64,000 nt of DNA from Nitrospira sp. (GCA_035455145.1 DATIFR010000134.1:16845-80844); one strand, 5' to 3'. Positions 2,386 through 64,000 are shown, numbered from the stretch's first letter. The notes: a model not told the origin generated them from the letters alone. Translations and numbers: made by a program.

Positions 2386-3911
2386 AGGCTCAAGCTGTTG
2401 CGATACTTGGAACAGGATCAGATGTCGGAAAGAGCCTGATGGTCGCTGGTCTATGCCGCCTGCTTTATCGAGGTGGTGTACGTGTCGCGCCTTTTAAGGC
2501 ACAAAACATGTCGAACAATTCGTTTGTGACGCCCGACGGAAAAGAAATCGGGCGTGCCCAGGCATTGCAAGCCCACGCTTGCGGTCTCGACGCTCACGTG
2601 GACATGAATCCGATCCTCTTGAAGCCGGAGTCGGATCGGCGTGCCCAAGTGGTGGTGCAGGGGAAGGTGTGGAGCACGTCAGACGCGCAAGATTATTTTC
2701 ATCAGCACAACGAACTGGCCCAACGTGTACGCGAAAGCTATGATCGCCTGGCGGCGCAATATTCCGTGATTGTGATCGAAGGGGCAGGGAGTGCGGCGGA
2801 AATGAATCTCCGTGATCGCGATCTGGCGAACTGGTTTTCGGTCGAACTGGCCGACGCGAAGGTCCTGTTGGTGGCTGACATCGATCGCGGTGGAGTCTTT
2901 GCGCAAGTGATCGGCACGCTGGATCTGCTCTCGCCGCACGAACGGGACCGAGTCTTCGGCATCGTGATCAATAAGTTTCGCGGCGATGCCGCGCTATTTG
3001 CCGATGGGGTCTCCTTCATCGAACAGCGTACCGGGCTGCCTGTCCTGGGGGTGGTGCCGTTTCTGCGCGGTGTGGTCTTGGAACAGGAAGACAGTCTTGA
3101 TATCGAGCGTCGCCGGCACAGACGATTTGCCGCCGATCGCGTGAATATCGGCGTCGTCCTGTTGCCACGTATGAGCAACTTTACGGATTTTGATCCATTG
3201 GCAGCAGAACAGGATGTCATCCTGCGCTATGTCGCCGAACCGCACGAGCTGGCCGGGGCTGATGTCATTCTGATTCCTGGTACCAAAAATACGATCGAGG
3301 ATCTTCGGTATCTTCGGCAGGCCGGCTTCACCGATACACTTCGCGAGCATGTGGCTCAGCGGCGGGAGGTGGTCGGGATTTGTGGAGGGTACCAAATGTT
3401 AGGGCGTAGCATTGCAGATCCCGAAGGAGTTGAGGCTGGCGGGATAGCCGCAGGGATGGGATTTCTGGATGTGACGACCAGACTCCTGAAGAAGAAAATA
3501 ACTCTGCGGATCGAGGCAGCGTCACTTCACCTCAATGACGGGCCAGCTCCTTCTGTTCGAGGTTATTTCATCCACATGGGTGAAACGGAACGCGGGCAGG
3601 AATCCGCCTGTTTTCATATACAGTCTGTGATGGGTGTTTCGGATCACCAGGAGCGAACATTAGGAGATTTGATGGAAGGTGCTGTAAGTGCAGACGGACT
3701 GGTCTGGGGGACGTACATTCACGGAATATTCGATCGGCCTGCCTTTCGCCGTACTTGGCTGAATCGCGTTCGTCAGCGTCGAGGCTTGCCTCCTCTGAGC
3801 GTCGAACAATCCGAAGGAGTTACTCAACGGCTCCTTGCAGAACTCGATCGTTGGGCTGACCACCTCGAACAGCATGTGAACGTGAGTCTCATCTTTAAGG
3901 CCATGGATTAG
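2382..3911 (+). CDS. cobQ: Cobyric acid synthase
   Basis: GTGSDVGKS, PFKAQNMSNNS, EIGRAQ, MNPILLKP, EGAGS, DIDRGG, SNFTDF, GICGGYQMLG, GTYIHG. Confidence 0.96.
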   Translation: MKAQAVAILGTGSDVGKSLMVAGLCRLLYRGGVRVAPFKAQNMSNNSFVTPDGKEIGRAQALQAHACGLDAHVDMNPILLKPESDRRAQVVVQGKVWSTSDAQDYFHQHNELAQRVRESYDRLAAQYSVIVIEGAGSAAEMNLRDRDLANWFSVELADAKVLLVADIDRGGVFAQVIGTLDLLSPHERDRVFGIVINKFRGDAALFADGVSFIEQRTGLPVLGVVPFLRGVVLEQEDSLDIERRRHRRFAADRVNIGVVLLPRMSNFTDFDPLAAEQDVILRYVAEPHELAGADVILIPGTKNTIEDLRYLRQAGFTDTLREHVAQRREVVGICGGYQMLGRSIADPEGVEAGGIAAGMGFLDVTTRLLKKKITLRIEAASLHLNDGPAPSVRGYFIHMGETERGQESACFHIQSVMGVSDHQERTLGDLMEGAVSADGLVWGTYIHGIFDRPAFRRTWLNRVRQRRGLPPLSVEQSEGVTQRLLAELDRWADHLEQHVNVSLIFKAMD

Positions 3912-3954
3912 TTGATGCCCACAGCGATTTCTATTGAGTTGGGCGTTGACAGTG

Positions 3955-3991
3955 AAAGAGGCGCTGCGATGCGACTCTGCGGCGCCTCTTT
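3955..3991 (+). terminator. Probable intrinsic terminator after cobQ
   Basis: Perfect 10-bp inverted repeat AAAGAGGCGC / GCGCCTCTTT, 44 bp after the cobQ stop; only a short T tract. Confidence 0.7.
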
Positions 3992-4832
3992 ATGCGGCGC
4001 AATGAATGCTAGAAAATTCCTCATTTATTTTTGACGTTCACCGAGGATTACCGCCAGGCGATTCAACGTAGCATCCTCCTCCCTGAGTTGCCGCAATTCT
4101 CAGAGTTGGCTGAGAACGATCCCCGTATACTTCCGTTTTCAACATAGAACGTCTCATCGCTGATATCGACCTGCCGATGGGCGTCCACCACGGTCGCCCC
4201 GCCCTCCGACTGCCGCATGGCAGCGAGAACCCGTTCCTCGGTATGTTCACCTTATCGTGCCGTCGTCTGCTCCTCTTTCTTGGTGAATAAGAGGACGCCG
4301 CTGCCTTTCCTTTCGGTTTTTGGGTCGCATCGAAATGAGGAGTAGGCTTTCTTCACTACATCATGAACGAGAATCGCCGCTGGTGACACTTCGGTAGCAC
4401 GTTTCGAGGGAAGCGTTGCCGTCATGGAGTCGAATGAATGTTGTCGGCTACAGAAACATGGAGAAGGTGGTGTGCGGTGGGGAATTCAAACAGAAAACGG
4501 AATGAAAAGGCTGTTGGTCAATTTTTGTCCAAACGCCATCATTTTGTCGCAACTTGAACAATCCTGTGCCGAAGTGTGGCGAATGGTACTGCACAAGAGA
4601 ATGCTTAACTGCCTGATACAAAATGAATTTCCGCCTTGGTTTTCCGAAAAAGGAAAACCCAGCGTCGTTGAGCACGGGCTTTGCAGATTGGCCGGTTGCC
4701 TTACGTGGTCATGAGCGGGTGAATAATCAGGGATCACGCCGGTTTTGCAATAAAACCGATATTGCTAGGCGATTCTGCCAGAGAGTGGGAAAAGAGACGA
4801 TGAATCGGGAGTAAAAGCATCTAATAAGGAGG

Positions 4833-13013: not shown

Positions 13014-14336
13014 ATGGACATGCCGAAGGTGTTAGTGGCTGACGATAGCATTGCCGTACGAAAGGTCGCGGAACGGCTGCTGACTGAGGCCGGATTGGGC
13101 GTTACGTTAGCGGCGAACGGTGAAGAGGCATTGGCCAGTCTAGCCAAGGAAGTGCCCGATTTGATCGTGTCAGACGTAATTATGCCGGATAAGAGCGGAT
13201 ACGAAGTCTGTGCATTTGTGCGTGCTCAGAGCGCGTTGGCAAACACACCGGTACTGCTCATCTCAGGGATCGTCAATGACGAAGTTACCAAGCAGGCCGA
13301 GTCCTGCCATGCGGACGGAGTGCTGAAGAAGCCCTTTCAGGGTACGTCGCTTAAGGATCGCGTCCTCGAACTGCTCGCCAAGAAACACGGTCAAAAAACC
13401 GAACCGCCAAAACAGGCGGCGCAGCCGGCTCCTCCGTCGGGGGCGGAGCGAGGTTCGCGTGTCCCGGACGAGCAGATAGCGGCCTCTCAACAAACCCTCG
13501 CCAAGCTGAAGCAGGTTGAGGAGGAACTTCACAAAGAACGGCAGCAATCGGCACAGTTGACTCAGCGCATCGCTCAACTTGAAGGCCAGGTTGGCCGTGT
13601 GAAGGAACTTGACGCCATCGTGGCAAGCGAGAGGGAGCAATCGGCGCAGGCCAAGAAGGCTGCTGAGGAACTGGCGCCGATCGCCCAGCGAGCAAAAGAG
13701 CTTGAGGCGTTGCTGAAGCAGGAGCGGGAACAGGCCGCGCAAGTCAAGAAGCAGGCGGACGATCTCCGAGGTCAAGTGACACGCCTGCATGAACTCGAAG
13801 AATTGCTGAAGCAGGAGCGGGAACAGGTTGCGCAGCTCAAGAAGCAGACGGACGATTTCCGAGGTCAAGTTGCACGCCTGCAGGAATTTGAAGCGGCATT
13901 GCAACAAGAACGGGTTAAAACCGCGCAACTCCAGCAACGCGTCACTGATATGCAGAAGTCCGTGACGCGCGTGCAAGAACTGGAAGCGGCCTTGTATGCC
14001 GAGCGTCAGGCTGCCACGCAGCTCGTTCAGCAAATGACGGCGATGGAAAAAGCCGTGAGCCGCTCGCAAGAGCTGGCACAACAGTTTGCGCGAGAGCAAC
14101 AGCGAGTGGAAGAACTGACTCGTCGGTTAGCCGTAAGCGAAGATGGAAGCGCAAAAGCAAAAGAGGTTGAAAAACTGTTGGAAACGGAGCGGGAGCGGAA
14201 CGCCGTGTTGGCGCATCGAGTGTCGGAAACCGAAGTGGCGGCGCAGCAGGCGACCAAACGATTCGAAGAGATGGCCAAGAAACTCGGAGAAATTGCAGGT
14301 TTGGCTTCCCAGTTAGGGAATGGAGCAAAGCGGTAA
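13014..14336 (+). CDS. Receiver domain fused to a long coiled coil (AglZ/FrzS-like architecture)
   Basis: REC (VADDS, SDVIMPD, KKPF) with intact phosphoacceptor Asp; Q/E/K/A-rich repeat tail. Start at ATG 13014 after GAAAGG. Confidence 0.85.
   Translation: MDMPKVLVADDSIAVRKVAERLLTEAGLGVTLAANGEEALASLAKEVPDLIVSDVIMPDKSGYEVCAFVRAQSALANTPVLLISGIVNDEVTKQAESCHADGVLKKPFQGTSLKDRVLELLAKKHGQKTEPPKQAAQPAPPSGAERGSRVPDEQIAASQQTLAKLKQVEEELHKERQQSAQLTQRIAQLEGQVGRVKELDAIVASEREQSAQAKKAAEELAPIAQRAKELEALLKQEREQAAQVKKQADDLRGQVTRLHELEELLKQEREQVAQLKKQTDDFRGQVARLQEFEAALQQERVKTAQLQQRVTDMQKSVTRVQELEAALYAERQAATQLVQQMTAMEKAVSRSQELAQQFAREQQRVEELTRRLAVSEDGSAKAKEVEKLLETERERNAVLAHRVSETEVAAQQATKRFEEMAKKLGEIAGLASQLGNGAKR
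13512..14255 (+). repeat. Intragenic tandem repeat, 8 x 93 bp (31 aa)
   Basis: Units start at 13512, 13605, 13698, 13791, 13884, 13977, 14070 and 14163 (ELExLLxxERExxAQ...). Units 3 and 4 are highly similar at DNA level (ttgctgaagcaggagcgggaacagg at 13710 and 13803). Confidence 0.9.
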
Positions 14337-35568: not shown

Positions 35569-35766
35569 ATGGCGATGTATCAATGGACGACGACGAAGCC
35601 CACCGAAGCCGGATGGTATTGGTTTCGGGGCCAGGCACACGAGGCCGATCCCTTTATCGTGCAGGTTGATGAGGTCGGGCAGTTTCAATGGCCGGACGGG
35701 GGATATCAGGAGGTGAAGCTGGCCAAAGGAGAGTGGGCGGGGCCGATTGAGGAGCCGGGCGAGTGA
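35569..35766 (+). CDS. Small Trp-rich hypothetical protein
   Basis: WTTTKPTEAGWYWFR...EWAGPI, a PTxxGWYW motif seen in small phage/accessory proteins. Confidence 0.65.
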   Translation: MAMYQWTTTKPTEAGWYWFRGQAHEADPFIVQVDEVGQFQWPDGGYQEVKLAKGEWAGPIEEPGE

Positions 35767-35769
35767 GTT

Positions 35770-35948
35770 GGTGAGACAGGTGCTCCCTGTGCTCGCGGAA
35801 CGCGACACGCGGGAACAATCGGATGCTTAAATCATGGGCGGTGTTCGTTCGACGCGCGCACGATGGGAGCAACCTGTCTCACCCTACAAGAAGAGCAGCT
35901 CCATTGGCCTAGGAGGAAAAGGAAAGCGAGCAAGCTTGGAAGGAGTGT
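35770..35948 (+). repeat. Structured repeat module X plus conserved 23-nt tail
   Basis: Outer stem GGTGAGACAGGT-GCTCCC / GGGAGC-A-ACCTGTCTCACC; core shared with 43084, 55183 and 57747; tail at 35926-35948. Confidence 0.85.
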
Positions 35949-36224: not shown

Positions 36225-36311
36225 TGGAGCGCAGGTCAGCGCCACCCGCGCTGGTGAACTCTCAATCGGCCGAAGGGGAGAAAGAAATACGAGCGAGCGT
36301 GGAGGGAGCAT
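36225..36311 (+). repeat. 3' fragment of module Z plus 23-nt tail
   Basis: GGTCAGCGCCACCCGC as in 40486-40500; tail ACGAGCGAGCGTGGAGGGAGCAT at 36289-36311. Confidence 0.75.
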
Positions 36312-40340: not shown

Positions 40341-40415
40341 GGAAGTGTTGTGGCGGGTCCTGTCGGTGATTGAACCCATTCGTCCTCGCTCCACCCATCC
40401 CCCAGTGGGTCCCTT

Positions 40416-40561
40416 CCGCTGCGGGCACTTGGTGAAAGCCGCGTCTCGGCGCGGCAGGGGTCGGGCGGGTGAGAAAGTTGCCCGGGTCAGCGCCACCCGC
40501 CTGTAGAGGTCGCATTTGCCGCATGAGGAAGAGGACAAACGAGCGAGCTTGGAAGGAGCAT
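40416..40561 (+). repeat. Structured repeat module Z plus 23-nt tail
   Basis: CCGCTGCGGG..CCGCGTCTCGGCGC..GGGCGGGTGAGAAAG..GCGCCACCCG shared with 55461 and 57933; tail at 40539-40561. Confidence 0.85.
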
Positions 40562-43083: not shown

Positions 43084-43403
43084 AACAGCGTCCGCATGGT
43101 CCTGTGCTCCCGGAGTGCGCACGCGGGACTCATCGTATTCTCAGATTAGGGGCGGTGCTCCCTCCACGGGCGCAATTGGACCATTGCGGACGCTGTTTTC
43201 CGAGATTAAACCAGACAAGTTCGGTGGGACCATTGATATGGTGGTTGCGCGCGAAACCTTCCATCCGCACCCCTTGAACAGGAGGAGAAACGAGCGAGCT
43301 TGGAAGGAACATTATAAGGGCTCGATCCTTCATGCAAGCCGCTGAGAAAGCCTCCTCCCCCTCACTTGATGGGATAAGGGAAGAGCGAACTTGGAAGGAT
43401 CAT
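43084..43403 (+). repeat. Stacked repeat cluster: module X, then two 3' fragments of module Y, each with a tail
   Basis: X outer stem AACAGCGTCCGCA-TGGTCC / GGACCA-T-TGCGGACGCTGTT; tails at 43211 (degenerate), 43290 and 43381. Confidence 0.8.
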
Positions 43404-43520
43404 TGAGTTCGTGGATGCAATCCAGCCCGCGTGCCACGAGACAATCTTGACATCAACGCTCGGCTCCCAGTACAAAATCATGCTTTGTCTATATGGGAAT
43501 TATTCATAAAGGAATCATTC

Positions 43521-46320: not shown

Positions 46321-47235
46321 TCAGCCGAGCAGAGCCGAGGCCAGCCGGGGCAGCCAGGGAAGCAGCGCCACGCCGACACAGATCGACAGCGCCACGATCG
46401 AGGCGACGAGATCTTCATCCAGGCCGGTTTCCGTCGCAAAGATCACAGCTGTCACCGCAGACGGCATCCCGGCGATCAGAATCACGATCGCCCGTTCCAT
46501 TCCAGTCAGGTCCAGCAGCCAGGCCGCCATCAATCCCAGCAAGAGGCCGCCGGCCATCCTCACTGACACCCCCAGGCAGGTCAGCTGCCATGTCCGCCGC
46601 AACGCATCAAGACTGATTGAAAGGCCAAGCACGAGGCTCGCGAGTGGCATCGTCGTGAGGTGCACCGGTGTCAGTGCATCGTGGAGCCATGAGGGCAGAT
46701 GCAGGCCCGCAGCCTTCAACGCCAGGGTGATCGTTAAGGCCCAGAGCGGCGGTGCGGAGAGCAGGCGAGCCAGCGATGAGCGTGCCGACGGCGAAGCCGT
46801 GCCGTGCCACACCGCGAGGGCATAGAGGACCGTGAGCGTCAATGTGGTTTGCCCGAGGTCGAAGAGAATCGCCTGTGCGAGTCCTTCCTCGCCGAACGTG
46901 GCCAGCGTGACGGGATAGGCGAAATAGACCGAATTGATGCAGCCGATGGAGAGCAGCAAGCTGCCCTGGGTCGGACGAGAGAGACGCAGCAGGCGGACGA
47001 GCGGCCAGGAGAGCAGCACCACCGGCAGCGTCACAAGACAGGCGGCCAGCGGCAGTTTCCAAGCCGTCGGCGCAAAGCTCACGCGGTCCAGTGACACAAG
47101 AATCGTGGCTGGCAGACTGACAGAAAACACGAAGCTGCCCAGCCGTTCCGCGTGCATCTTGGTGAGCATTGCATAGAAACGAAGCGAGGCGCCGAGGAGG
47201 AAGAGAACGAGGAAGGCGTGGAGGGAAGGGGGCAT
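46321..47235 (-). CDS. AEC (auxin efflux carrier) family transporter
   Basis: VFSVSLPA, NSVYFAYP, GMPSAV; about 10 TMs. Confidence 0.88.
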   Translation of the reverse strand: MPPSLHAFLVLFLLGASLRFYAMLTKMHAERLGSFVFSVSLPATILVSLDRVSFAPTAWKLPLAACLVTLPVVLLSWPLVRLLRLSRPTQGSLLLSIGCINSVYFAYPVTLATFGEEGLAQAILFDLGQTTLTLTVLYALAVWHGTASPSARSSLARLLSAPPLWALTITLALKAAGLHLPSWLHDALTPVHLTTMPLASLVLGLSISLDALRRTWQLTCLGVSVRMAGGLLLGLMAAWLLDLTGMERAIVILIAGMPSAVTAVIFATETGLDEDLVASIVALSICVGVALLPWLPRLASALLG

Positions 47236-47286: not shown

Positions 47287-47534
47287 AGAGGATGGAGTGC
47301 CCGCACGCTCCAGTGTCTCAGCTCGACCGCACTAAGCTTACCATCTGCTCGGCTGCGGAACTTGTTCCATCCGGGCTGCGCAGGATGGAACGGCGAACAG
47401 TCCTCGCCGTCGCGCAACGCGACCGCATCTGCTCAGCAAGTGCGGGGCCCGAGCTTTGACACAAGTCGCGTACAAAACCCTCCATCCTCTCCGCCCGGCG
47501 AGAGAAGAAAAAAGAGCAACCTTGGAGGGAGCAT
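47287..47534 (+). repeat. Structured repeat module Y plus 23-nt tail
   Basis: Outer stem AGAGGATGGAG / CTCCATCCTCT; high similarity to 51969-52216; tail at 47512-47534. Confidence 0.88.
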
Positions 47535-47684
47535 TGAAATGTGTTTTTGCGGAAGGAGCAGACTGAGCCGATGACGAAGCTTAGGTCAACCTCTTGATCT
47601 CGCCTTCTGAAGAGACGAGCGGAATGAGAGACCCTTCAGCTCACTTGCGAGAAAAGCTCACACACAAGCCTGGAAGCAGCACCA

Positions 47685-47924
47685 TCAGGGTCGGACCTGG
47701 AAGGTCTTTGGCCCCTTTTTGTGGTCCGACAGGTAAATCATGTAGCGACCTCCGGTGCCGCATGTCACCATGATTTCTCCACGCCGGCTCAAGCGATCGA
47801 TTTCGAGAAACACCTGATTCCAGGTGAACTCGGGTAGACGTTCGGCCAATGTATCCAGGTCACAACCATGCGTACGCTTGATCGTTCCGAGGATGCGATC
47901 GGTGACCGGTGTTTGTGGATCCAT
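47685..47924 (-). CDS. Small hypothetical protein, winged-helix-like
   Basis: LDTLAERLPEFTWNQVFLEIDRLSRRGEI; paralogue at 60085-60369. Confidence 0.7.
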   Translation of the reverse strand: MDPQTPVTDRILGTIKRTHGCDLDTLAERLPEFTWNQVFLEIDRLSRRGEIMVTCGTGGRYMIYLSDHKKGPKTFQVRP

Positions 47925-47983
47925 GATATGACCCTCCTGTGATGTTCGAACGCTCACTGCAATCTTCCTCACGCCCCTTCCGG

Positions 47984-48430
47984 TTACGGATCGCTTCCCG
48001 ATCGTGGGTAGACGATGCCGAACTGCTCATCCGGCATGAGCCGTTGAGACAGATCGGCCAGCTCCTCGGCTGCGTCGTCGCCCAACCCGTAGGCGCGACT
48101 AGTCAGCATGCTGAGAAACCGGCCCATTTCCCGTCTGGCCCGCCATCGATCCCCGAGAGTGACCGCGCCGCGGATGCGATCGAGTTCATCGGCATAGGGG
48201 GCGAAATCGTACGTCGGATATTTCTTCGTGAAGTACGTCATGAGCCGGTGCTCGAGGTCATCCACCCACTCGACCGGCGGAGCGAGACGGTCAGTCGGTG
48301 TAGCGACAACGAGCAGAACGGAAGGAGTCACCGTGCCGTGAATGTGCGCAGGTATGAGAAGGAAGAAGACAGCTGACAGGAGAATCAGCGCCAAGAGGGG
48401 AATGACCGTGCGGCGGCTGAAAACTTCCAT
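47984..48430 (-). CDS. Hypothetical membrane-anchored or exported protein
   Basis: N-terminal hydrophobic segment, helical C-terminus, GAGG RBS. Confidence 0.6.
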   Translation of the reverse strand: MEVFSRRTVIPLLALILLSAVFFLLIPAHIHGTVTPSVLLVVATPTDRLAPPVEWVDDLEHRLMTYFTKKYPTYDFAPYADELDRIRGAVTLGDRWRARREMGRFLSMLTSRAYGLGDDAAEELADLSQRLMPDEQFGIVYPRSGSDP

Positions 48431-48679
48431 GAGGACCCTCGTTCCAAAGGATCCGCATCCAAATGGTGATGCCTGACGTTAGTGTGTCCGGTGTGGGAGT
48501 GAAGGGGGCTGCAGCGAAGTCCGTCATGCAGGATGACAGAACGTAGCATGCAGAAGAGGCGGCAGCCACCGCCACTGGAACGTCAGACCAGCATGTTACG
48601 CCGGTGGAGATTCTTGGTCAACCGTCTCTCGATGAGCCAAGGGAGCCAGTTTCCAGGGATTGCTCGGCGCCATGGAGCA

Positions 48680-48702
48680 ACGAGCGGGCTTGGAAAAAGC
48701 AT
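48680..48702 (+). repeat. Isolated 23-nt tail motif
   Basis: ACGAGCGGGCTTGGAAAAAGCAT, without a recognisable X, Y or Z module upstream. Confidence 0.65.
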
Positions 48703-48786
48703 CCGATGCACGCGCCGCACGCAACTCCCTCATGATGTACTCATCGGAGCATATCGTGCTTGAGTCAGCTTCAAGTCGTCTTCATA

Positions 48787-49761
48787 ATGACCGGCATGGA
48801 TAGAGCGGAGCTCTTGTCGTTGTATCGTCAGATGTTGCTGATCCGCCGGTTCGAAGAGAAATCGGCGGAGATGTATGCCCTCGCGAAGATCGCCGGCTTC
48901 CTCCACCTCTATATCGGCGAAGAGGCGATTGCAGTCGGCGCCATGGCCGCCCTTCGACCGAACGATTACGCCATCAGCGCCTACCGCGACCATGGTCATT
49001 GCCTCGCGCGAGGGGCCGATCCAGGCAAGGTGATGGCCGAGCTATTCGGGAAAGCCACCGGCCTCTGCAAAGGCAAGGGCGGATCGATGCATCTTGTGGA
49101 TCTTGCGCACCGGTTCATGGGCGGCTATGCCATTGTCGGAGGCCACATCCCGCTGGCCACCGGCCTGGCCTTCGCGATCAAGTATCAGGCGCTCGACCTG
49201 GTCACGGCCTGCTTTTTCGGAGAGGGGGCGGTGCCGAGCGGGCAGGCGCATGAGGCGTTCAATCTGGCGGCCCTCTGGAAACTTCCAGTGATCTTCGTCT
49301 GCGAGAATAATCGCTACGGTATGGGCACGCCCGTTGAACGGGCCATCGCGCTCTATGCGGACGTGGCGGAGACAGCCCGTTCCTACGGGATCACGGCGGA
49401 GCGTGTGGACGGGATGGATGTGCTCGCGGTGCGCTCGTCGATGGACAAGGCGGTGAAGCAGGTGCGTGCTGGGCGCGGCCCCTGGTTTATCGAGGCGATG
49501 ACCTACCGATATATGGGCCACTCGATGTCCGACCCGGCGCACGGACATTACCGGACGAAAGAGGAAGTGGAGGAGCATCGCAAGCGCGACCCGCTGCTCT
49601 TATTGAAGGAATCGATGGTGAATCAGAACCTGGGTACCGAAGCCGATTTCAAACAGCTCGAGCGGGACGTGGGTGAGGTCGTGGCGGCAGCCGTCAAATT
49701 CGCGGAAGACAGTCCGTTCCCGAGCCCGTCGGACTTATACGACGACGTGCTGCAGGAGTAA
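48787..49761 (+). CDS. pdhA: Pyruvate dehydrogenase E1 alpha
   Basis: GFLHLYIGEEA, YRDHG, GKGGSMH, GEGA..GQ.HEAFN, TYRYMGHSMSDP. Confidence 0.93.
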   Translation: MTGMDRAELLSLYRQMLLIRRFEEKSAEMYALAKIAGFLHLYIGEEAIAVGAMAALRPNDYAISAYRDHGHCLARGADPGKVMAELFGKATGLCKGKGGSMHLVDLAHRFMGGYAIVGGHIPLATGLAFAIKYQALDLVTACFFGEGAVPSGQAHEAFNLAALWKLPVIFVCENNRYGMGTPVERAIALYADVAETARSYGITAERVDGMDVLAVRSSMDKAVKQVRAGRGPWFIEAMTYRYMGHSMSDPAHGHYRTKEEVEEHRKRDPLLLLKESMVNQNLGTEADFKQLERDVGEVVAAAVKFAEDSPFPSPSDLYDDVLQE

Positions 49762-49769
49762 GACGGTTC

Positions 49770-50738
49770 ATGTTGTTGTCCTATCGGGAAGCCCTCAACC
49801 AGGCCATGCGGGAGGAGATGCGCCGGGACCAGCGCATCTTCTTGATCGGCGAAGAAGTCGCCTACTATCAGGGCGCGTTTAAAGTCAGCAAAGGATTCGT
49901 CGAGGAATTCGGCCCCCAGCGGGTGATCGATACGCCGATCACCGAAGCCGGCTTCACCGGCCTGGCCATCGGTGCTGCCATGGCAGGACTCCATCCGATC
50001 GTGGAACTCATGACGATGAACTTCGGCATTCTTGCCCTCGATCAGATCGTCAACAACGCCGCCAAAATCCGCTACATGTCCGGCGGACAACTCTCCGTAC
50101 CGCTCGTCATCCGTGGTCCCGGGAGCGCCGCCCACCAGTTGGGGGCCCAGCACTCGCAAAGTCTCGAAGCGTGGTTCTGCCATGTGCCGGGCTTGAAAGT
50201 GATCGCGCCGGCCACGCCGCACGATGCGAAGGGCCTGCTCAGGAGCGCGATCCGGGATCCCAACCCCGTCATCTTCATCGAAGCGCAGTTGTTGTACGGC
50301 ACGAAGGGCGAAGTCCAAGAGGGCGAGTACACGATCCCCATCGGCGTAGCCGAAGTGAAACGGGTCGGGCGAGATGTGACCATCGTCGCCTATTCGAAGA
50401 TGCTCTTCCTCGCGCTGGAGGCTGCCGATCAACTGAGTCGAGAGGGCATCGAGGCCGAGGTGATCGATCCGCGCACGCTCAAACCGCTGGACCTCCAGAC
50501 GATCGTCTTGTCAGTCAAGAAGACGGGGCGTCTCGTGATCGTTGAGGAAGGCTGGCGCTTTTGCGGGCTGGGGGCGCAGATTGCAGAGAGCGTCTACTCG
50601 GCGGCGTTCGATCATTTGGATGCCCCGATCATGCGCGTCGCGGGCGAAGAAGTGCCGATGCCCTATTGTCGCCCGCTGGAGGATGCCGCCATCCCGGACC
50701 TGCCGCGCGTGATGGAGGCCGTCAAATCGCTTCTGTGA
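49770..50738 (+). CDS. pdhB: Pyruvate dehydrogenase E1 beta
   Basis: DTPITEAGF, GAQHSQ, DPRTLKPLD. Confidence 0.93.
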   Translation: MLLSYREALNQAMREEMRRDQRIFLIGEEVAYYQGAFKVSKGFVEEFGPQRVIDTPITEAGFTGLAIGAAMAGLHPIVELMTMNFGILALDQIVNNAAKIRYMSGGQLSVPLVIRGPGSAAHQLGAQHSQSLEAWFCHVPGLKVIAPATPHDAKGLLRSAIRDPNPVIFIEAQLLYGTKGEVQEGEYTIPIGVAEVKRVGRDVTIVAYSKMLFLALEAADQLSREGIEAEVIDPRTLKPLDLQTIVLSVKKTGRLVIVEEGWRFCGLGAQIAESVYSAAFDHLDAPIMRVAGEEVPMPYCRPLEDAAIPDLPRVMEAVKSLL

Positions 50739-50751
50739 CGAGAGGAGAGCC

Positions 50752-51954
50752 ATGGCGAGTCGCGTTGTGATGCCCAAGCTGACGGACACGATGGAAGAGG
50801 GTGTGCTCGTTGCGTGGAAGAAACGCGAGGGGGATCACGTGCAGTCCGGGGAGGCCCTCGCTGAAATTGAAACTGACAAGGCGATCATGGATCTGGAGGC
50901 CTTTGCCTCAGGCATTCTGCGCAAGATTCTCGTGAATGATGGAGAAACGGTCCAGTCCGGAACGTTGCTGGGCGTGATCGCCGAGGCCGATGAAGATATC
51001 ACCTCGGCCTTGACCGACACAGTCACGGCCGCCCCGTCGACCGGCGGGGGAGGCAAGCCCACCGCCCCAGCACCTGCCGTCACTCCACCCACGTCGCCCA
51101 CGCGCACAGAGGGAGCCCGCCCCATCGCGTCCCCTCGCGCGAAAGCTCTAGCCGCCGAACGAGGGATCGATCTCTCCACCATTACCGGCAGTGGTCCTGG
51201 CGGGCGAATCGTCGAAGAAGACTTGCCGAAGATACCGGCACCCGTGACGGCGGCCCTGCCCGCCGGAACCGATCAGCCCCTGACCCAAATGCGGAAGGCC
51301 ATTGCTCGGGCCACGACCCAGAGCAAAGCACCGGTACCGCACTTCTATCTGACGAGGGAGATCGATATGGAGGCGGCGGAGCAGTTCCGCGAGCAATTCA
51401 AGCAACGCCGTCAGCCCCATCCCTCAATCACCGATCTGCTGATCAAAGCGGCGGCCATAGCGCTGACGAGGCATCCCGCGATCAACGTGTCGTATGTCGG
51501 CGAGGCGATCAGACACTATGCGCATATCGATATCGGTGTGGCGGTCGGCATGGACGACGGGCTGATCACGCCCGTCATTCGCGATTGTGGCGCAAAGACG
51601 CTGGAAGCCATCTCAACGGAATCACGTGCGCTCATCGAACGGGCCAAACAGAAGCGGTTGCAACCGCCTGAATATACGGGTGCCACGTTCTCCGTTTCCA
51701 ACCTCGGCATGTACGGGGTCGACAACTTCATTGCTGTGCTCATCCCGCCACAGGCCGCTTCGCTGGCCGTTGGCGCCATTCGGGAGGTGCCCGTTGTTGC
51801 AGCGGGTAGTGTGAAGATTGGCCGACGAATGCAGGTTACGTTATCCTGCGATCACCGGGCCATCGATGGCGTGATGGGCGCGGAGTTTCTGAAAGAGTTG
51901 ACGCGCATCCTTGAGCACCCGCAAGAACTGGTCATCCCAGTGAGGACATCCTAA
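50752..51954 (+). CDS. pdhC: Dihydrolipoamide acetyltransferase E2
   Basis: Lipoyl domain ETDKA, E3-binding SPRAK..GSGPGGRI, catalytic DHRAIDG. Confidence 0.92.
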   Translation: MASRVVMPKLTDTMEEGVLVAWKKREGDHVQSGEALAEIETDKAIMDLEAFASGILRKILVNDGETVQSGTLLGVIAEADEDITSALTDTVTAAPSTGGGGKPTAPAPAVTPPTSPTRTEGARPIASPRAKALAAERGIDLSTITGSGPGGRIVEEDLPKIPAPVTAALPAGTDQPLTQMRKAIARATTQSKAPVPHFYLTREIDMEAAEQFREQFKQRRQPHPSITDLLIKAAAIALTRHPAINVSYVGEAIRHYAHIDIGVAVGMDDGLITPVIRDCGAKTLEAISTESRALIERAKQKRLQPPEYTGATFSVSNLGMYGVDNFIAVLIPPQAASLAVGAIREVPVVAAGSVKIGRRMQVTLSCDHRAIDGVMGAEFLKELTRILEHPQELVIPVRTS

Positions 51955-51968
51955 GATCCAGGTAGAAA

Positions 51969-52216
51969 GGGCGTGGATGAAACGCCTGCACGCTCCGATG
52001 CCTCAGATCGACCGCACTAAGCTTCGCACCTGCTCGGCTGCGGAACTTGTTCCATCCTTTGCGATGCGGGATGGAACGTCGAACAGTCCTCGCCGTCGCG
52101 GAACGCGACCGCCGCTGCCCGGCAAGTGCGGAGTCCCGAGCTTCGGTACAAGTCGCGCGCAGGACTTTCCATCCCCGCCACTTGGGGAGAAAAACGAGCG
52201 AGCTCTGAGGGATCAT
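51969..52216 (+). repeat. Structured repeat module Y plus 23-nt tail
   Basis: Aligns with 47287-47534 (TCGACCGCACTAAGCTT, CTGCTCGGCTGCGGAACTTGTTCCATCC, GAACAGTCCTCGCCGTCGCG); tail at 52194-52216. Confidence 0.88.
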
Positions 52217-52277
52217 TCTAGTTGGATGAGGTGTGCGGTAAAGATGGTGATCATCAGATGAGAAAGGAGGGCAGGCC

Positions 52278-52592
52278 ATGGCGTGGGGACCTGATGCGAA
52301 TACAGAAGATGAACTGGAAAAGCTGGCAGCTGTGCGTGCGTATCTTCACGAACAGTTCCCGGGTGCCTCGATTCGTGATTCGTACGATGCCGGCAGGATA
52401 GCGGAGGTGTTTCGGATCGAAACCGACGGCGTCGAGGGGCTGCGCGATGCGGTCGTCTCGACCGAATTTCTCGACGAGTATCCGCCTGAAAAAATGGGAA
52501 AGGCGTTGACCGGCTTGCGGGTTGCGGAACACCTCCGCTCAGCGAAGGGCAAGGAGGTGCTGGTCACAAGTTGGGGTGTAGAAGAAAAGTAG
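52278..52592 (+). CDS. Hypothetical protein
   Basis: Strong RBS (AAGGAGG), 104-aa acidic globular ORF. Confidence 0.65.
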   Translation: MAWGPDANTEDELEKLAAVRAYLHEQFPGASIRDSYDAGRIAEVFRIETDGVEGLRDAVVSTEFLDEYPPEKMGKALTGLRVAEHLRSAKGKEVLVTSWGVEEK

Positions 52593-52599
52593 GGTTGAA

Positions 52600-52730
52600 T
52601 CCGTTCGGCCTTCGCTTATCGACCTCTGGGCGCGATCCTTCCGGATGCGACCGGGCGGAAGTCCTTCTGGAATTCCCGCAGCCACGGTTGTGCCAACCGT
52701 GGCTGCGTCTGTCAGTTCCACCTTTCCTTC
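52600..52730. repeat. Structured repeat family W, copy 2
   Basis: GCGATCCTT..CCTTCTGGAATTCCC.CAGCCACGGT..ACCGTGG..GTCAGTTCCA.CTTTCC shared with 36050-36150. Confidence 0.75.
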
Positions 52731-52910
52731 CCGTTCACACCCCGCTTCTTGTTCAGGTCCATGAGCGCATAACTTTTGTGCCGGCCCCCGAGCAGCAAGT
52801 CAACGTGCACATTCACCTCATCGTCGTCTCTCCCATCTTTTCCTGTGCGCAGGCGAGCCGGCCTGTTAGGATGCGCTCGCGCGGGTGAATCGTCGAGCCC
52901 GCATGATCGC

Positions 52911-54152
52911 ATGACACTCTCACAGCCATCAGCCAGACCGCGACAAGCCGCGGTCCTCTTCATTCTCATCACGGTCATGCTCGACGTCCTGTCGTTCGGA
53001 ATCATTATTCCCGTCCTCCCGAAGCTCGTCGAAAACTTCATGTCCGGCGACACGGCGCAGGCGGCGGCGATCTATGGCTTCATGGGCATGGCCTGGGCGT
53101 TGATGCAGCTGCTCTGCTCGCCGATCCAGGGTGCACTCTCCGACCGGTTCGGGCGAAGACCGGTCGTGCTGCTCTCCAACTTCGGCCTCGGCCTCGATTA
53201 CATCCTCATGGCGCTCGCGCCGGACATCACCTGGCTCTTTGCGGGCCGGGTCATTTCGGGTATCGCCTCGTCGAGCTTCAGCACTGCTGGCGCCTATATC
53301 GCCGACGTCACCCCGCCGGAGGAACGGGCCGCCGGTTTCGGCATGATCGGCGCAGCGTTCGGCTTAGGGTTTGTGCTCGGTCCGGCGGTAGGCGGACTGT
53401 TAGGGGCGAGCGATCCGCACCTGCCGTTCTGGGGCGCAGCCGCGACGAGTCTCGTGAACGCCTGTTACGGTTACTTTGTCCTGCCGGAATCGCTTCCGCG
53501 CGAGAAACGGATGAACTTTTCCTGGAAGCGCGCGAACGCGGTCGGTTCGCTCGTGCTGCTGCGCTCGCATCATGAACTGTTCGGCCTCTCTGCCGTGGCG
53601 TTTCTCAACTATCTCGCCCATGCGGTGTTACCCAGCACCGCGGTGCTCTATGTCGGCTATCGCTACGGATGGGGATCGACGGCCGTCGGCTTCATGCTCG
53701 CCGCTGCCGGCATCAACGCCATGATCGTGCAGGGACTGTTGATGAAACCGCTCACCGCGCGGTTCGGGGAACGAAAGACCTTGCTCGCGGGCTTGTGCTG
53801 CGGGGCGATCGGGTTTTGCGTCTACGGCGTCGCCACCGACGGATGGATCTATTGCGCCGGCATTCCCATCATGGCCTTCTGGGGGCTCGCCGGTCCGTCG
53901 GCGCAGGGGCTCATGACCAACCGCGTGAGTGCCTCTGAACAAGGGCAACTCCAAGGAGCCATCGCGGGGTTGTCCGGCATCGCCGGTCTGATCGGGCCCG
54001 GTCTCTTCACGCAAACATTTGCGCTGTTCATCGGGCCCCGCGCCGGTTGGCATCTCCCGGGCGCGCCGTTTCTCCTTGCGTCATTCTTATTACTGCTGGG
54101 AATGGCGTTAGCCTGGCGGGCGACGAGGGGAGGGCATGAGAAGACGGGATGA
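52911..54152 (+). CDS. TCR/Tet-family MFS efflux transporter
   Basis: LDVLSFGIIIPVLP, GALSDRFGRRPV (motif A), GFVLGPAVGG, QGQLQG. Confidence 0.9.
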   Translation: MTLSQPSARPRQAAVLFILITVMLDVLSFGIIIPVLPKLVENFMSGDTAQAAAIYGFMGMAWALMQLLCSPIQGALSDRFGRRPVVLLSNFGLGLDYILMALAPDITWLFAGRVISGIASSSFSTAGAYIADVTPPEERAAGFGMIGAAFGLGFVLGPAVGGLLGASDPHLPFWGAAATSLVNACYGYFVLPESLPREKRMNFSWKRANAVGSLVLLRSHHELFGLSAVAFLNYLAHAVLPSTAVLYVGYRYGWGSTAVGFMLAAAGINAMIVQGLLMKPLTARFGERKTLLAGLCCGAIGFCVYGVATDGWIYCAGIPIMAFWGLAGPSAQGLMTNRVSASEQGQLQGAIAGLSGIAGLIGPGLFTQTFALFIGPRAGWHLPGAPFLLASFLLLLGMALAWRATRGGHEKTG

Positions 54153-54215
54153 ATTGCTCCGCGGGCTTCCGCAAGGATATTGAGCCTGCACGCAAGGCGT
54201 GATCGCTGATCGTGG

Positions 54216-55106
54216 TCAGCGTGGACTGACGAGCCTGGGCTGTTTGCCGCCTGATGCCAGTTGGGCGAACTGCTGCTTCATCGCATTGACCCGGATTAGA
54301 TAGGCGCGCACGTCGTGGTCGCCGCACCGCTGGTGGGGGCTCAGCCTGAAGCGGCGCGCGGCATAGGCCTGGCCGGCCCCGGCACCGCAAAGGTGAATGA
54401 CCGCGGCCAGATCCTGTTTGTTCCGGAGCGTGACAGTGCCGCTCCGTCTCTGTCCGACCGCACTCACAACTTGGCGATCGAGCAGTGCCGAAGTCAATTC
54501 GATGGCATGGCTCGGGAGGACGCGCTGGTAGAGGTTGTTGAACCAGCAGGATTGCATGTCGTGCCATGGGCCGTCCTCGACCACGACATGGTCGTGGATG
54601 CAGTAGCGTTTGGCTTCCTGAAAGGTACCATCGGTAATCTGGTACATGCCGACCGCACTCGACGCCGGTCGGTACCACTCCAAAGGATTCCACGACGGCT
54701 GCCATCTCCAGTAAGTTCGCGCCACCGGGTTTCCCGCGCCCTCGACCTGCGCCAGCGCCGCCAATAACTCAGGCGTGATGACCGCTGTCGCATGTTCGCG
54801 GAAGAGCAATCCATATTCTTTCCACGTTTCGGCCGGGCTCTTGTTCAGTGTACGGTCCAAGGGAAAGAGGATTTCGCTCGGCTTGTAGTACGCGTGATAG
54901 GTCCAGTTGACGCCGAGCCAGAACAGGAGGATCGCCGATAAAATCACGACGGCACGCACCGACGGCGGCGAGGCCAGCACGGCCTTCAGAATTCTACGGG
55001 ATGTTTTCCAGCGGGCGCGCAGGTAACGCCAGAAGGTTTTGAGGGTGCGGCGACGGCGGCGGGAGGGACGGCGACGGGAGGAGCGGAGGTTAGGGCGAGA
55101 GGACAT
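54216..55106 (-). CDS. Membrane-anchored lytic transglycosylase-like (SLT/lysozyme-fold) protein
   Basis: Arg-rich N-terminus plus TM; ALAQVEG (catalytic Glu) and SSAVGMYQI motifs. Confidence 0.75.
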   Translation of the reverse strand: MSSRPNLRSSRRRPSRRRRRTLKTFWRYLRARWKTSRRILKAVLASPPSVRAVVILSAILLFWLGVNWTYHAYYKPSEILFPLDRTLNKSPAETWKEYGLLFREHATAVITPELLAALAQVEGAGNPVARTYWRWQPSWNPLEWYRPASSAVGMYQITDGTFQEAKRYCIHDHVVVEDGPWHDMQSCWFNNLYQRVLPSHAIELTSALLDRQVVSAVGQRRSGTVTLRNKQDLAAVIHLCGAGAGQAYAARRFRLSPHQRCGDHDVRAYLIRVNAMKQQFAQLASGGKQPRLVSPR

Positions 55107-55130
55107 GGGGACAATATATATGAAAATGGT

Positions 55131-55850
55131 GGGAGGGTGGCCTGATCGGTCCCTGTGCTCGCCGAACGCGACACATTGAGAAGGAAGGAGGTCCGTTGGT
55201 CGCCTGTGCTCGCGCAACGCGGCACGCGGGATCTATCGAATTATCACGTAAAGGGCGGTGCTCGTTGGACGCGCGCACTGGGAGACCAATCGGCCCACCT
55301 TCCGAGAAGAGAGGGCAAGCGAGCTTGGAAGGACCATTGTATATTTCACGCGCGCACAATGGAACCGATTCAGGCCACCTCGAAGCCCGAGTCCCCATGA
55401 GGGTGAAAGAGGGAAACGAGCAAGCTTGGGGGGACCATTTTATTTAATAGTGGGGCCCTCCCGCTGCGGGCGCTTGGGAAAGACCGCGTCTCGGCGCAGT
55501 AGGGATTGGGCGGGTGAGAAAGTCGCTCGGGTCGGCGCCACCCGTGAGAATGAGGATTCGCAACTCAGGGGGTGGGGGAGGAACGACGAGCGAGCTTGGG
55601 AGGAACACGAGGATGGTGAGCCTGCTCGCTCCGGCGAGTGGTTAAGCCGCATGGCCCTATCGCTGCTTGGCTGCGCAACTTGTTCCGTCCTGGACTTCGT
55701 TCGAACGGAACTTCGGACAATGCTCGCCATCGCTTTCAGCGACCGCATCGACTCGACCATGCAACCCCTCGCAAGTCGCAGCCAGCCCCACCATCCTCAG
55801 TAGGCGAATAGGGAATGTCACGCGCACAATGGGACCGATTCAAATCTCAA
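55131..55850 (+). repeat. Largest stacked/nested repeat cluster (X split around X, then Z, Y and an X fragment)
   Basis: Tails at 55315, 55416 and 55586; modules identified by alignment to the other copies. Confidence 0.85.
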
Positions 55851-55953
55851 CCTTGAGAGGAGAAGAAAGAATCCGCCGGTGGAAGCTCTGCCGGCTACCA
55901 TCTGCAGTGGAAGAAGCCGGCGCGACTGCCGAATGGATGATCCTATGGTCGTC

Positions 55954-57681: not shown

Positions 57682-57740
57682 GAAGAGTTGTAGCGAAGTA
57701 GAGAAGAAAAGGTCAATGCGGGGAGTGTGGCGAGTGAGGT

Positions 57741-58110
57741 GGGAGGGTGGCCTGATCGGTCCCTGTGCTCGCGGAACGCGACACACGGGAACAAACAGAT
57801 TGATAAATTATTGGCGGTGTTCGTTCGACGCGCGCACGATGGGACCGATTCAGGCCACTTTGAAGCCCGTCTCCGCATGAGGGGGAGAGATAACGAGCAA
57901 GCTTGGAAGGACCATTTTATAGTGGATCAATTCCGCTGCGGGTGCTTGGTGAAAACCGCGTCCCGGCGCGGGTGGGCTGGGTGGGTGAGAAAGCCGCCCG
58001 AGTCGGCGCCACCCGCTAAGAGAGAGTCAACCCTTGCCCAGGGGGAGGAGCGGAACGAGCAAGCTTGGAGGGATCATCAAAAGTTCGACGCGCGCACGTT
58101 TGAGGCCAAT
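57741..58110 (+). repeat. Stacked repeat cluster: X plus tail, Z plus tail, X 3' fragment
   Basis: X stem GTGGCCTGA-TCGGTCCC / GGGACCGA-T-TCAGGCCAC; tails at 57893 and 58055. Confidence 0.88.
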
Positions 58111-58346
58111 CGGGCCACCCCACGCCATGGAGGAGATGCTCTAGTGAACGAAGTTGGATTCCCGGTGAGCGCTATCCGTGAAGAAAGTCACAACACCCGT
58201 ATCCGATAACTGGCGACATTGAAATGCACGTATTTCCTCACTCCCCCAAGCTATCTCTCTTGCGCGATCTCTCTCGTGCTCTTACAATTCGCTCCGTGAT
58301 ACTAAAAAATCTTCTTCAGCCCGGATCGGTGTTAGGTTTCGGGGCA

Positions 58347-63542: not shown

Positions 63543-64000
63543 CTAGCGGCCCCCATGTCCGCCACCGCCACGACCACCGCCACCGCGACCGCCTCCACCG
63601 GAATGACCTCCTCCACGCCCGCCAAAATGTTGGGGACTCGTGGACGGGCTTTGGCGTGGTACCGAGAAGGGCGCGCGAAGCACAGGAGGATTCGGTTGGG
63701 CGACATGGGGTGGATGGACCTGTTGCAGTGTGGGTGGCAGAGGGCGTGAGAACTGTTGCGGCGGCGCCGGCGTCCGTAAGGCATTGGCACCGGTTCCGGC
63801 ATTGGCCGATCCCGGCAACAGAGTCTGTGGAGGTGCTGGTGCCGGCGTCCGTAATGCATTGGCACTCGTCGCGGCATTTGCCGATCCCGGGAGCAGAGTC
63901 TGCGGTGGCGGTGCAGTGACGCGCCCAGAGGCTGGCGGCGAGACCAGCAAAGAAGAATGCGGCGATGCCTGCACGGAAACTCCCGGCGATGAGGGTGGCA
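63543..64000 (-). CDS. C-terminal end of a Pro/Gly-rich protein, 5' part beyond the window
   Basis: Frame stays open to base 64000; 2 x 25-aa repeat and a GGR/RGG-rich tail. Confidence 0.55.
   Translation of the reverse strand, partial: PPSSPGVSVQASPHSSLLVSPPASGRVTAPPPQTLLPGSANAATSANALRTPAPAPPQTLLPGSANAGTGANALRTPAPPQQFSRPLPPTLQQVHPPHVAQPNPPVLRAPFSVPRQSPSTSPQHFGGRGGGHSGGGGRGGGGRGGGGHGGR

Follow-up and report, generated by a model that had tools for sequence, protein, structure and literature searches.

Module Y of Nitrospira: a strand-specific folded intergenic element, tentatively read as an insertion element

Investigating a 64-kb stretch of Nitrospira sp. DNA (called the window below; coordinates are those of this whole stretch and its plus strand is the reader strand), we observed that an element termed Y, present there in three full and two truncated copies, belongs to a family of folded intergenic sequences whose pairing is maintained on the window's minus strand, the reverse complement of the strand as read. 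The family is undescribed and specific to Nitrospira/Nitrospiraceae, and it lies within a broad known kind of element. Tentatively, at a rough probability of 0.42, we take Y to be a Nitrospiraceae-specific structured insertion element, similar in kind to the repetitive extragenic palindromic (REP) sequences and bacterial interspersed mosaic elements (BIME), the enterobacterial repetitive intergenic consensus (ERIC) and the miniature inverted-repeat transposable elements (MITEs), and to form one module of an intergenic mosaic. This reading is drawn from the mosaic itself, the truncation of copies, the nesting of a companion module called X, gain and loss at orthologous sites, the strand-specific fold and an association with foreign DNA.

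Copies, fold and folded strand of Y

The preliminary description of the window, made by eye from the sequence, had listed three homologous full copies of Y and two 3' fragments, each ending in a short tail motif, and all five are borne out (strands are those of the fold):

47287-47490, minus strand: Y1, full copy; core 47335-47451; covariance-model score 104.2 bits, on the minus strand
51972-52179, minus strand: Y2, full copy; core 52020-52137; covariance-model score 102.7 bits
55609-55798, minus strand: Y3, full copy of another subfamily, nearest to the type of locus L015; core 55653-55770; 119.4 bits
43222-43318, minus strand: truncated Y, its last ~55 nt (reader strand) with a linker and the tail motif, found by alignment
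43319-43409, minus strand: second truncated Y with the tail motif, more diverged, found by alignment to the 3' part of Y

Y1, Y2 and Y3 are homologous over their full length (mean column identity 76%, alignment A1). Measured against their own dinucleotide shuffles, they fold with z-scores of -5.6, -2.8 and -3.2 on the plus strand and of -7.1, -3.4 and -6.3 on the minus strand, respectively, and a covariance model (R1) built from about 90 Y cores finds exactly three matches in the 64-kb window, with 102-119 bits and E-values of 1e-26 to 1e-31.

In its architecture Y is a long rod of about 205-235 nt with a three-way junction at the tip. A variable outer helix, 10-25 bp long and frequently GGATGG.../...CCATCC, closes the rod and is followed by one or two more helices; the core, about 60 nt long, is nearly invariant. 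The tip is made up of a helix CGGCUGCGSA/USCUCGCCG, of a hairpin GUUCCRU...AYGGAAC lying past an asymmetric internal loop with invariant nucleotides, and of a small hairpin in which every pair covaries. The ends of the element read GAGGATGG.../...CCATCCTC or TGAYGGCC.../...GGCCGTCA.

The homologues bear out a conserved multi-stem structure with real covariation. Among 16 full-length copies, 89.8% of the cells are paired, as against 33-45% when the partners are slid by 1-3 columns; 34 of the 70 pairs are altered on both sides, and none of 500 shuffles attains the observed values. In the 90 cores the paired fraction amounts to 88.2% on the plus and 90.9% on the minus strand. Three of the four helices proposed earlier show changes that preserve them: the outer stem (both-sided changes in 12 of 19 pairs), the GTTCCAT/ATGGAAC pairing, more generally GTTCCRT/AYGGAAC (GC 63, AU 18, UA 3), and the triloop hairpin TCGCG-loop-CGCGA (both-sided changes in five of five pairs), which had also been described from module X and is indeed found there as TCGCGGAACGCGA (families D4/D6). 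The fourth, GCG-NA-ACTTG/CAAGT-CGC, had to be replaced, since ACTTG is invariant in 90 copies while its supposed partner is free (CAAGT, CACGT, CAATT, TCATT, GGCC); instead, GCGSA pairs with USC.CGC, and at S a clean C-G/G-C swap separates 60 from 24 sequences. A T-loop reading of GUUCGAA was ruled out, as the position equivalent to A58 varies. A coding function was likewise rejected: Y1 and Y2 are open in different frames, invariance of the core extends to every codon position, and Y1 is without a minus-strand open reading frame (ORF) of at least 80 aa.

The fold had originally been drawn on the reader strand, and here the base-pair statistics correct the earlier view. Read on the plus strand, the consensus pairs of the 90 cores include 145 A·C/C·A against 44 G·U/U·G combinations, and the three most variable core pairs (27-71, 37-55 and 38-54) occur as CG 61/CA 29, as UA 47/CA 28/CG 12 and as CG 58/CA 16/UA 8, so that 29, 28 and 16 of the 90 copies carry C·A mismatches within core helices. 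On the minus strand the same three pairs become CG/UG, UA/UG/CG and CG/UG/UA. Because a C·A on the plus strand is a U·G wobble on the minus strand, and thereby a path between Watson-Crick pairs, the folded strand is the minus strand; read in this way, the core helices are 95-99% paired. The thermodynamic comparison of the 88 full-length copies agrees with this orientation, the folding energy being lower on the minus strand in 80 and the z-score more negative in 65 of them (means -5.8 on the minus and -4.9 on the plus strand). Minimum-energy folds contain 557 G·U pairs on the minus and 324 on the plus strand, and conserved UC/UC internal loops of the plus strand turn into tandem G·A pairs on the minus strand (40 tandem GA/GA loops). 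Unpaired columns show no excess of G-to-A changes, which argues that the strand signal stems from selection and not from mutation bias; relative to the replication strand, the orientation of Y is only mildly biased (37:21). Folded single-stranded DNA tolerates G·T wobbles and tandem G·A pairs just as RNA does, and the pairing statistics fit either molecule.

The family is narrowly distributed. A scan with an exact pattern through one genome per prokaryotic species returned 26 loci, of which 19 lie in metagenome-assembled genomes (MAGs) of Nitrospira, Nitrospiraceae or Nitrospirales and together hold 21 true Y copies; the other seven, from unrelated taxa, showed nothing beyond the pattern, none was scored by the covariance model, and they were discarded as chance matches. 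With a looser pattern, 77 further Y loci were found in metagenome contigs from soil, rhizosphere, groundwater and sediment, and none in 2.9 million viral contigs. Altogether about 90 distinct cores are available, and the taxonomic range obtained with the two patterns is confined to Nitrospira/Nitrospiraceae genomes and to soil, groundwater or sediment metagenomes; the window's own genes are also present in soil metagenomes. The earlier statement that Y is not recognisable as a known riboswitch is upheld by Rfam 15, which gave no match in the whole window at gathering thresholds and, at E<=10 around Y1 and Y3, only chance-level matches with no ribozyme model among them. Full-text literature searches for an RNA motif or repeat of Nitrospira, whose coverage leaves out subscription journals, found no description.

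Genomic placement and companion modules

Y is often placed close to stop codons: in 23 loci, a co-oriented gene has its stop codon 0-20 nt ahead of the reader-strand 5' end of Y. The genes ending at Y belong to at least 11 unrelated protein families (PlsY, PurQ, PurC, SucC, cytochrome c, M20 peptidase, glucose dehydrogenase, a SnoaL protein, a methyltransferase, DUF4112 and, in the window, the E2 subunit of a 2-oxoacid dehydrogenase, whose stop codon at 51954 precedes Y2 by 18 nt). The upstream gene is co-oriented with Y in 45 of 65 contexts and on the opposite strand in the other 20, and the downstream neighbour has no favoured orientation or distance. Seen from the folded strand, the end of Y mostly borders on the stop codon of a convergent gene, and the next gene is co-oriented after Y in 20 of the 65 contexts; one of these is Y1, which on the minus strand is followed, 52 nt further on, by the start (47235) of an AEC-type transporter gene (ORF 46321-47235, Pfam match Mem_trans). 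Most copies are solitary and stand behind housekeeping genes.

Two side observations concern these junctions. In eight loci (L007, L022, L033, L048, L049, L059, L086, L097), a conserved GC-rich hairpin GGCGACG...CGTCGCC with a T-run on the minus strand only is found about 30-90 nt past the reader-strand 3' end of Y; from its sequence it looks like the one-directional intrinsic terminator of a convergent gene, placed just upstream of Y as read on the folded strand. In the complete genome CP126122, a 75-aa antitoxin-like ORF (L113 3734-3961) lies between purQ and Y, and its TGA stop falls within Y's outer helix (GTGATGGCCAGGGCC). In a related species it is purQ that joins Y in this same manner; the outer helix thereby provides a stop codon for any ORF reading into it.

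Y is present or absent at orthologous sites, as is known from MITEs. The spacer between purQ and purL is 47 nt long and holds no Y in four contigs of one Nitrospira type (L109-L112, no model match), and it contains Y flush with the purQ stop codon in six other species or strains (L016, L020, L024, L094, L103, L113), in CP126122 together with the small antitoxin-like ORF and a low-GC gene of 238 aa. The purC 3' site likewise differs among species, being vacant in one, occupied by nested X modules in a second and by Y in three others; in CP126122 its occupants are X modules (L113 2100-2330). Within the window, Y3 is an insertion in the array 55128-55860 and is missing from the paralogous array 57738-58140; a comparison of this filled site with its empty counterpart revealed no direct repeat. 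The truncated copies retain the reader-strand 3' end and the tail.

The DNA on the two sides of Y differs in composition. Flanking G+C averages 0.549 on the distal side (the reader-strand 3' side) against 0.578 on the proximal side (Wilcoxon p = 0.0016), and values below 0.52 are found in 10 of 42 distal flanks compared with one of 42 proximal ones. The low-GC distal flanks carry genes for Avs2, three ThsB-like TIR proteins, a type III restriction-modification (RM) methylase, Druantia DruA and a ParA-like ATPase, and an IS110-like ORF, recognised by eye only, also lies on a distal flank (flanks with defence or mobile genes: L025 3976-7866, L029 3239-6300, L106, L084, L016 985-1884 and L028 218-1699). 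A helicase-like ORF adjoins the type III RM methylase. At L029 742-2857, three identically oriented Y copies lie within 2.1 kb in a layout like that of a cassette array; the ORFs recognised by eye between them are a RelE/ParE-like toxin, accompanied by an antitoxin-like ORF, and another ORF of the antitoxin-like type.

In the window, the intergenic regions from 35.7 to 58.2 kb are a mosaic of Y, X, a G-rich module and the common tail, of which the companions of Y are located as follows:

47507-47538, plus strand: tail after Y1 (motif match)
52189-52220, plus strand: tail after Y2 (motif match)
55581-55612, plus strand: tail of the preceding G-rich module 55449-55544, directly abutting Y3 at its 5' end (reader strand)
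35762-35890 and 57738-57866: copies of X
55128-55440: one X with its tail, nested in another X
40404-40499, 55449-55544 and 57921-58016: G-rich module, ~96 nt, with a tail after each copy; a 3' piece lies near 36225-36260

The tail is a separate module accompanying about a third of the Y copies. It is 22-30 nt long, consists of the consensus ACGAGCRAGCTTGGARGGANCAT followed by an AT-rich stretch of about 8 nt, and has a palindromic core CAAGCTTG with a purine-rich sequence before it. The window contains 12-13 copies, all on the plus strand and only within the 22 kb from 35926 to 58073 (examples are 40539-40557, 43290-43308 and 57893-57911), against 0.02 expected, and 62 more copies, nearly always co-oriented with Y, occur in 630 kb of related loci. 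Candidate roles are those of an operator, a promoter part or a leader. A plain ribosome-binding site was rejected, because other modules or a gap precede the next long ORF start in the window and because at L021 and L026 the next long ORF, as called mechanically, lies on the other strand; sigma-54 and sigma-32 promoters were rejected by eye for their spacing, and the tail showed neither a sigma-70 match nor a tight coupling to start codons.

Module X forms a rod of about 130 nt with an outer helix of 18 bp and an AT-rich tip, and its z-scores of -5.5 to -7.6 show strong folding on either strand; isolated X 3' halves follow tails at 55347, 55820 and 58083. The G-rich module behaves in the opposite way to Y, with -45 to -55 kcal/mol on the plus and -34 to -41 kcal/mol on the minus strand, and one copy alone clearly beats its own shuffles. 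The arrays 55128-55860 and 57738-58140 share the order X, tail, G-rich module, tail, X 3' half and stand each upstream of a plus-strand gene, the first one with two extra insertions (the inner X with its tail, and Y3).

The window as a whole is chromosomal (G+C ~59%) and carries ordinary housekeeping genes, such as those for G6PD, pyrophosphatase, DeaD, the 2-oxoacid dehydrogenase E1a/E1b/E2 operon and an MFS transporter; a scan of it for tRNA and tmRNA found none. The stretches after Y1 and its tail (47540-48680) and after Y2 and its tail (52278-52592) contain small ORFs only, of 145 and 148 aa on opposite strands and of 104 aa, respectively, none of which matched Pfam, NCBIfam or PADLOC. Their G+C is somewhat below that of the other side of Y, and they may represent cargo like that found beside Y elsewhere. 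Tandem direct repeats at 13698-13883 (93 nt, 85% identical) and 63763-63912 (75 nt, 83% identical), apparently within long ORFs, are probably repeated protein segments.

Weighing the explanations

As an insertion element, Y would have settled over evolutionary time in permissive spots, namely right after stop codons and on the borders of variable foreign DNA. Its invariant core and junction, together with the single-strand fold, may be the recognition surface of a lineage-specific protein, predicted to move, copy or recombine Y, and the target of this protein would be either single-stranded DNA, comparable to that of REP sequences and their transposase RAYT, of IS200/IS605 ends and of integron attC sites, or an antisense transcript. 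Copies would persist chiefly at places and in orientations that leave the neighbouring gene undisturbed, which would account for Y being flush with the upstream stop codon and for the intact leader of the downstream gene.

Several known systems resemble Y in part. REP sequences and BIMEs of enterobacteria and pseudomonads are likewise intergenic imperfect palindromes, located mainly at the 3' ends of genes or between convergent ones; they form mosaics with other short conserved motifs, as Y does at gene 3' ends, and their structure is kept by compensatory change. RAYT acts on them in the form of folded single strands, and insertion sequences use them as targets. REP sequences, however, measure 20-40 nt and occur in hundreds of copies, whereas Y is about 205-235 nt long with four or fewer exact-pattern matches per MAG, so that it is not a short high-copy palindrome, and Y has a branched tip and an invariant core of 60 nt, no head motif of the GTAG type and no RAYT gene, REP-flanked or other, that we have seen. 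ERIC, also known as the intergenic repeat unit (IRU), shares with Y the build of a large imperfect palindrome (127 nt in ERIC), the location in transcribed intergenic regions, a conservation across species exceeding the needs of pairing, internal insertions, truncated forms and an unresolved function; unlike Y, it is a simple hairpin without a three-way junction and is found in both orientations, Y in turn is confined to Nitrospiraceae, and the two have no sequence similarity. MITEs and other small repeats (Correia/NEMIS, RPE, the cyanobacterial Nezha, SDR) are non-coding, structured intergenic insertions that nest within one another and occupy an orthologous site in some genomes but not in others; Y differs from them in its low copy number, its high divergence and the long-term conservation of individual copies, and in lacking a conserved terminal inverted repeat sequence and a detectable target-site duplication; the outer helix of Y does form an inverted repeat, yet one whose sequence differs between copies in a compensatory way. 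The omega-RNA or right-end scaffold of IS200/IS605 (TnpB) elements is a strand-specific multi-stem structure of about 150-200 nt at one end of inserted DNA, and its 3' end marks the boundary to host DNA. It differs from Y, which has heterogeneous cargo (Avs2, Thoeris-like, RM and toxin-antitoxin genes), gives no Rfam match to HEARO or related models, and has no tnpA, tnpB or iscB beside any copy, the neighbouring ORFs being of the housekeeping, defence or toxin-antitoxin type.

A number of observations weigh against an insertion element. No transposase, RAYT or integrase was seen beside any Y copy in the flanks examined, and no HUH transposase among the scanned neighbours. A target-site duplication could not be defined, the orthologous empty and filled sites being too diverged to align, and beyond the semi-conserved GGATGG...CCATCC no terminal sequence is conserved across the copies. 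Any single MAG holds at most four exact-pattern matches, and copies within one genome are about 76% identical, unlike those of a recently active MITE. The orthologous Y copies behind purQ keep their fold by compensatory changes and their core invariant, though the C-termini of the neighbouring proteins have diverged, which argues for selection on each resident copy and hence for a host or RNA function. Finally, metatranscriptome contigs coincide with Y twice, pointing to at least low-level transcription.

The strongest competitor, which we consider unlikely though by no means negligible, is a non-coding RNA transcribed from the minus strand, either a small or antisense RNA ending at the convergent stop codon or the 5' leader of the next gene, whose invariant junction would bind a protein or a ligand. 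The few matches per genome, the identity of only ~76% and the kept orthologous copies, with their invariant core and compensatory arm changes, make it a strong rival. In its favour, the minus-strand pairing is kept through G·U wobbles, this strand is G-rich, with purine-rich loops and tandem G·A pairs, and a co-oriented gene follows on the minus strand in the 20 contexts given above; the wobbles and tandem G·A pairs are, as stated, also tolerated in folded single-stranded DNA. Transcript data, which consist of very sparse strandless contigs from soil metatranscriptome runs, bear on this explanation in two places. A read-sized contig of 151 nt lies inside Y2 (51976-52126), and in locus L040 a contig of 210 nt (3909-4118) matches the extent of Y (3924-4131) nearly exactly, the adjacent contig stopping at 3900. 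Some RNA therefore covers Y, at about the level of its neighbours, and beyond these contigs the data show nothing more about boundaries or strand. Signals expected of an RNA gene are missing: among 74 copies there is neither a -10-like box at a fixed distance upstream nor a T-run at a fixed distance downstream of the outer helix, and scans for sigma-70 promoters and intrinsic terminators gave no excess over shuffles and no hit coinciding with Y or the tail. In one class of loci a good minus-strand intrinsic terminator is situated about 35 nt upstream of Y, the neighbouring genes are functionally unrelated, and the presence or absence in the pur operon, together with the truncation of copies and the nesting of companion modules, would be unusual for an RNA gene.

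An action of Y within plus-strand mRNA, as a 3' untranslated region or intercistronic element (a 3' exonuclease barrier, a processing site or an unusual terminator) of the kind that REP/BIME and ERIC represent in enterobacterial operons, appears improbable. The 23 loci in which Y starts 0-20 nt past a co-oriented stop codon speak for it, as do operons transcribed through Y (purQ-Y-purL, and E2 followed by Y2 and the next gene), the plus strand's still considerable folding (z about -4.9) and, in the class with the minus-strand terminator, the fact that the convergent gene has a terminator of its own, with Y on the other gene's side. Yet pairing is less protected on the plus strand, as the C·A mismatches in 29, 28 and 16 of 90 copies illustrate, the upstream gene is on the opposite strand in 20 of 65 contexts, and the outer helix is not followed by a U-tract; T enrichment after it, by which an intrinsic terminator would be recognised, is absent on either strand.

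Quite improbable, too, is a more specific role in recombination, in which Y would be the folded single-strand site of a cassette-docking system, an analogue of attC unrelated to it in sequence, that parks toxin-antitoxin and anti-phage defence genes right behind housekeeping genes. This idea is drawn from the fold of the complement strand, the stop-flush position, the tandem copies of L029 with their toxin-antitoxin-like ORFs, and the Avs2, Thoeris-like, Druantia and type III RM genes on one specific flank. The attC sites of integrons (for example the VCR of Vibrio) are indeed imperfect palindromes placed right after an ORF stop codon, of which the fold of the complementary strand matters; both properties are found in Y, and same-orientation copies with toxin-antitoxin or defence genes between them and branched tips on long sites are further likenesses. 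Against this, the ends of Y are without AAC/GTT boxes and thus lack the R''/R' boxes of attC (RYYYAAC ... GTTRRRY), Y has a conserved centre and variable ends where attC has the reverse, no intI or attI was seen in the examined flanks, and the genes upstream of Y are mostly core housekeeping genes. The link between Y and the defence islets may reflect either a causal docking site or just shared permissive sites.

A plus-strand riboswitch or self-cleaving ribozyme is very improbable, although the preliminary description had compared the complexity of the structure with that of a ribozyme or large ncRNA: apart from this complexity and the invariant unpaired junction nucleotides, its only hint is a weak partial likeness of the hairpin CAACUUGUUCC...GGAACU to the THF-II riboswitch (folE motif), the best Rfam score near Y (16.6 bits against a gathering threshold of 41, E 2.1, model positions 6-32 of 39), which covers one hairpin beside neighbours unrelated to folate, while the folded strand is the opposite one, no ribozyme or other riboswitch model matches at E<=10, no hammerhead-type CUGAUGA/GAAA core was seen by eye, Y stands mostly 3' of genes with no consistent downstream gene class, and the many unrelated flanking genes, the presence/absence pattern, truncation, nesting of companions and defence-gene DNA all point elsewhere.

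Meaning for Nitrospira genomes

Nitrospira comprises key nitrite oxidisers as well as complete ammonia oxidisers, and its non-coding genome is almost undescribed. The Y family is well supported and lineage-specific, and with its defined fold, its covariance model and some 90 members it can be used for the annotation of these genomes and helps to avoid spurious ORFs, as one database gene call in CP126122 and several mechanical ORFs in the window cover Y. General caution is also advisable when folds are interpreted, because a convincing covarying fold placed on the wrong strand alters the whole biological interpretation. The stop-flush placement and the nearby defence islets suggest that Y marks or creates entry sites for foreign genes in conserved operons; if true, Y would provide a handle on the variable regions of these genomes and on an uncharacterised recombination or mobility machinery.

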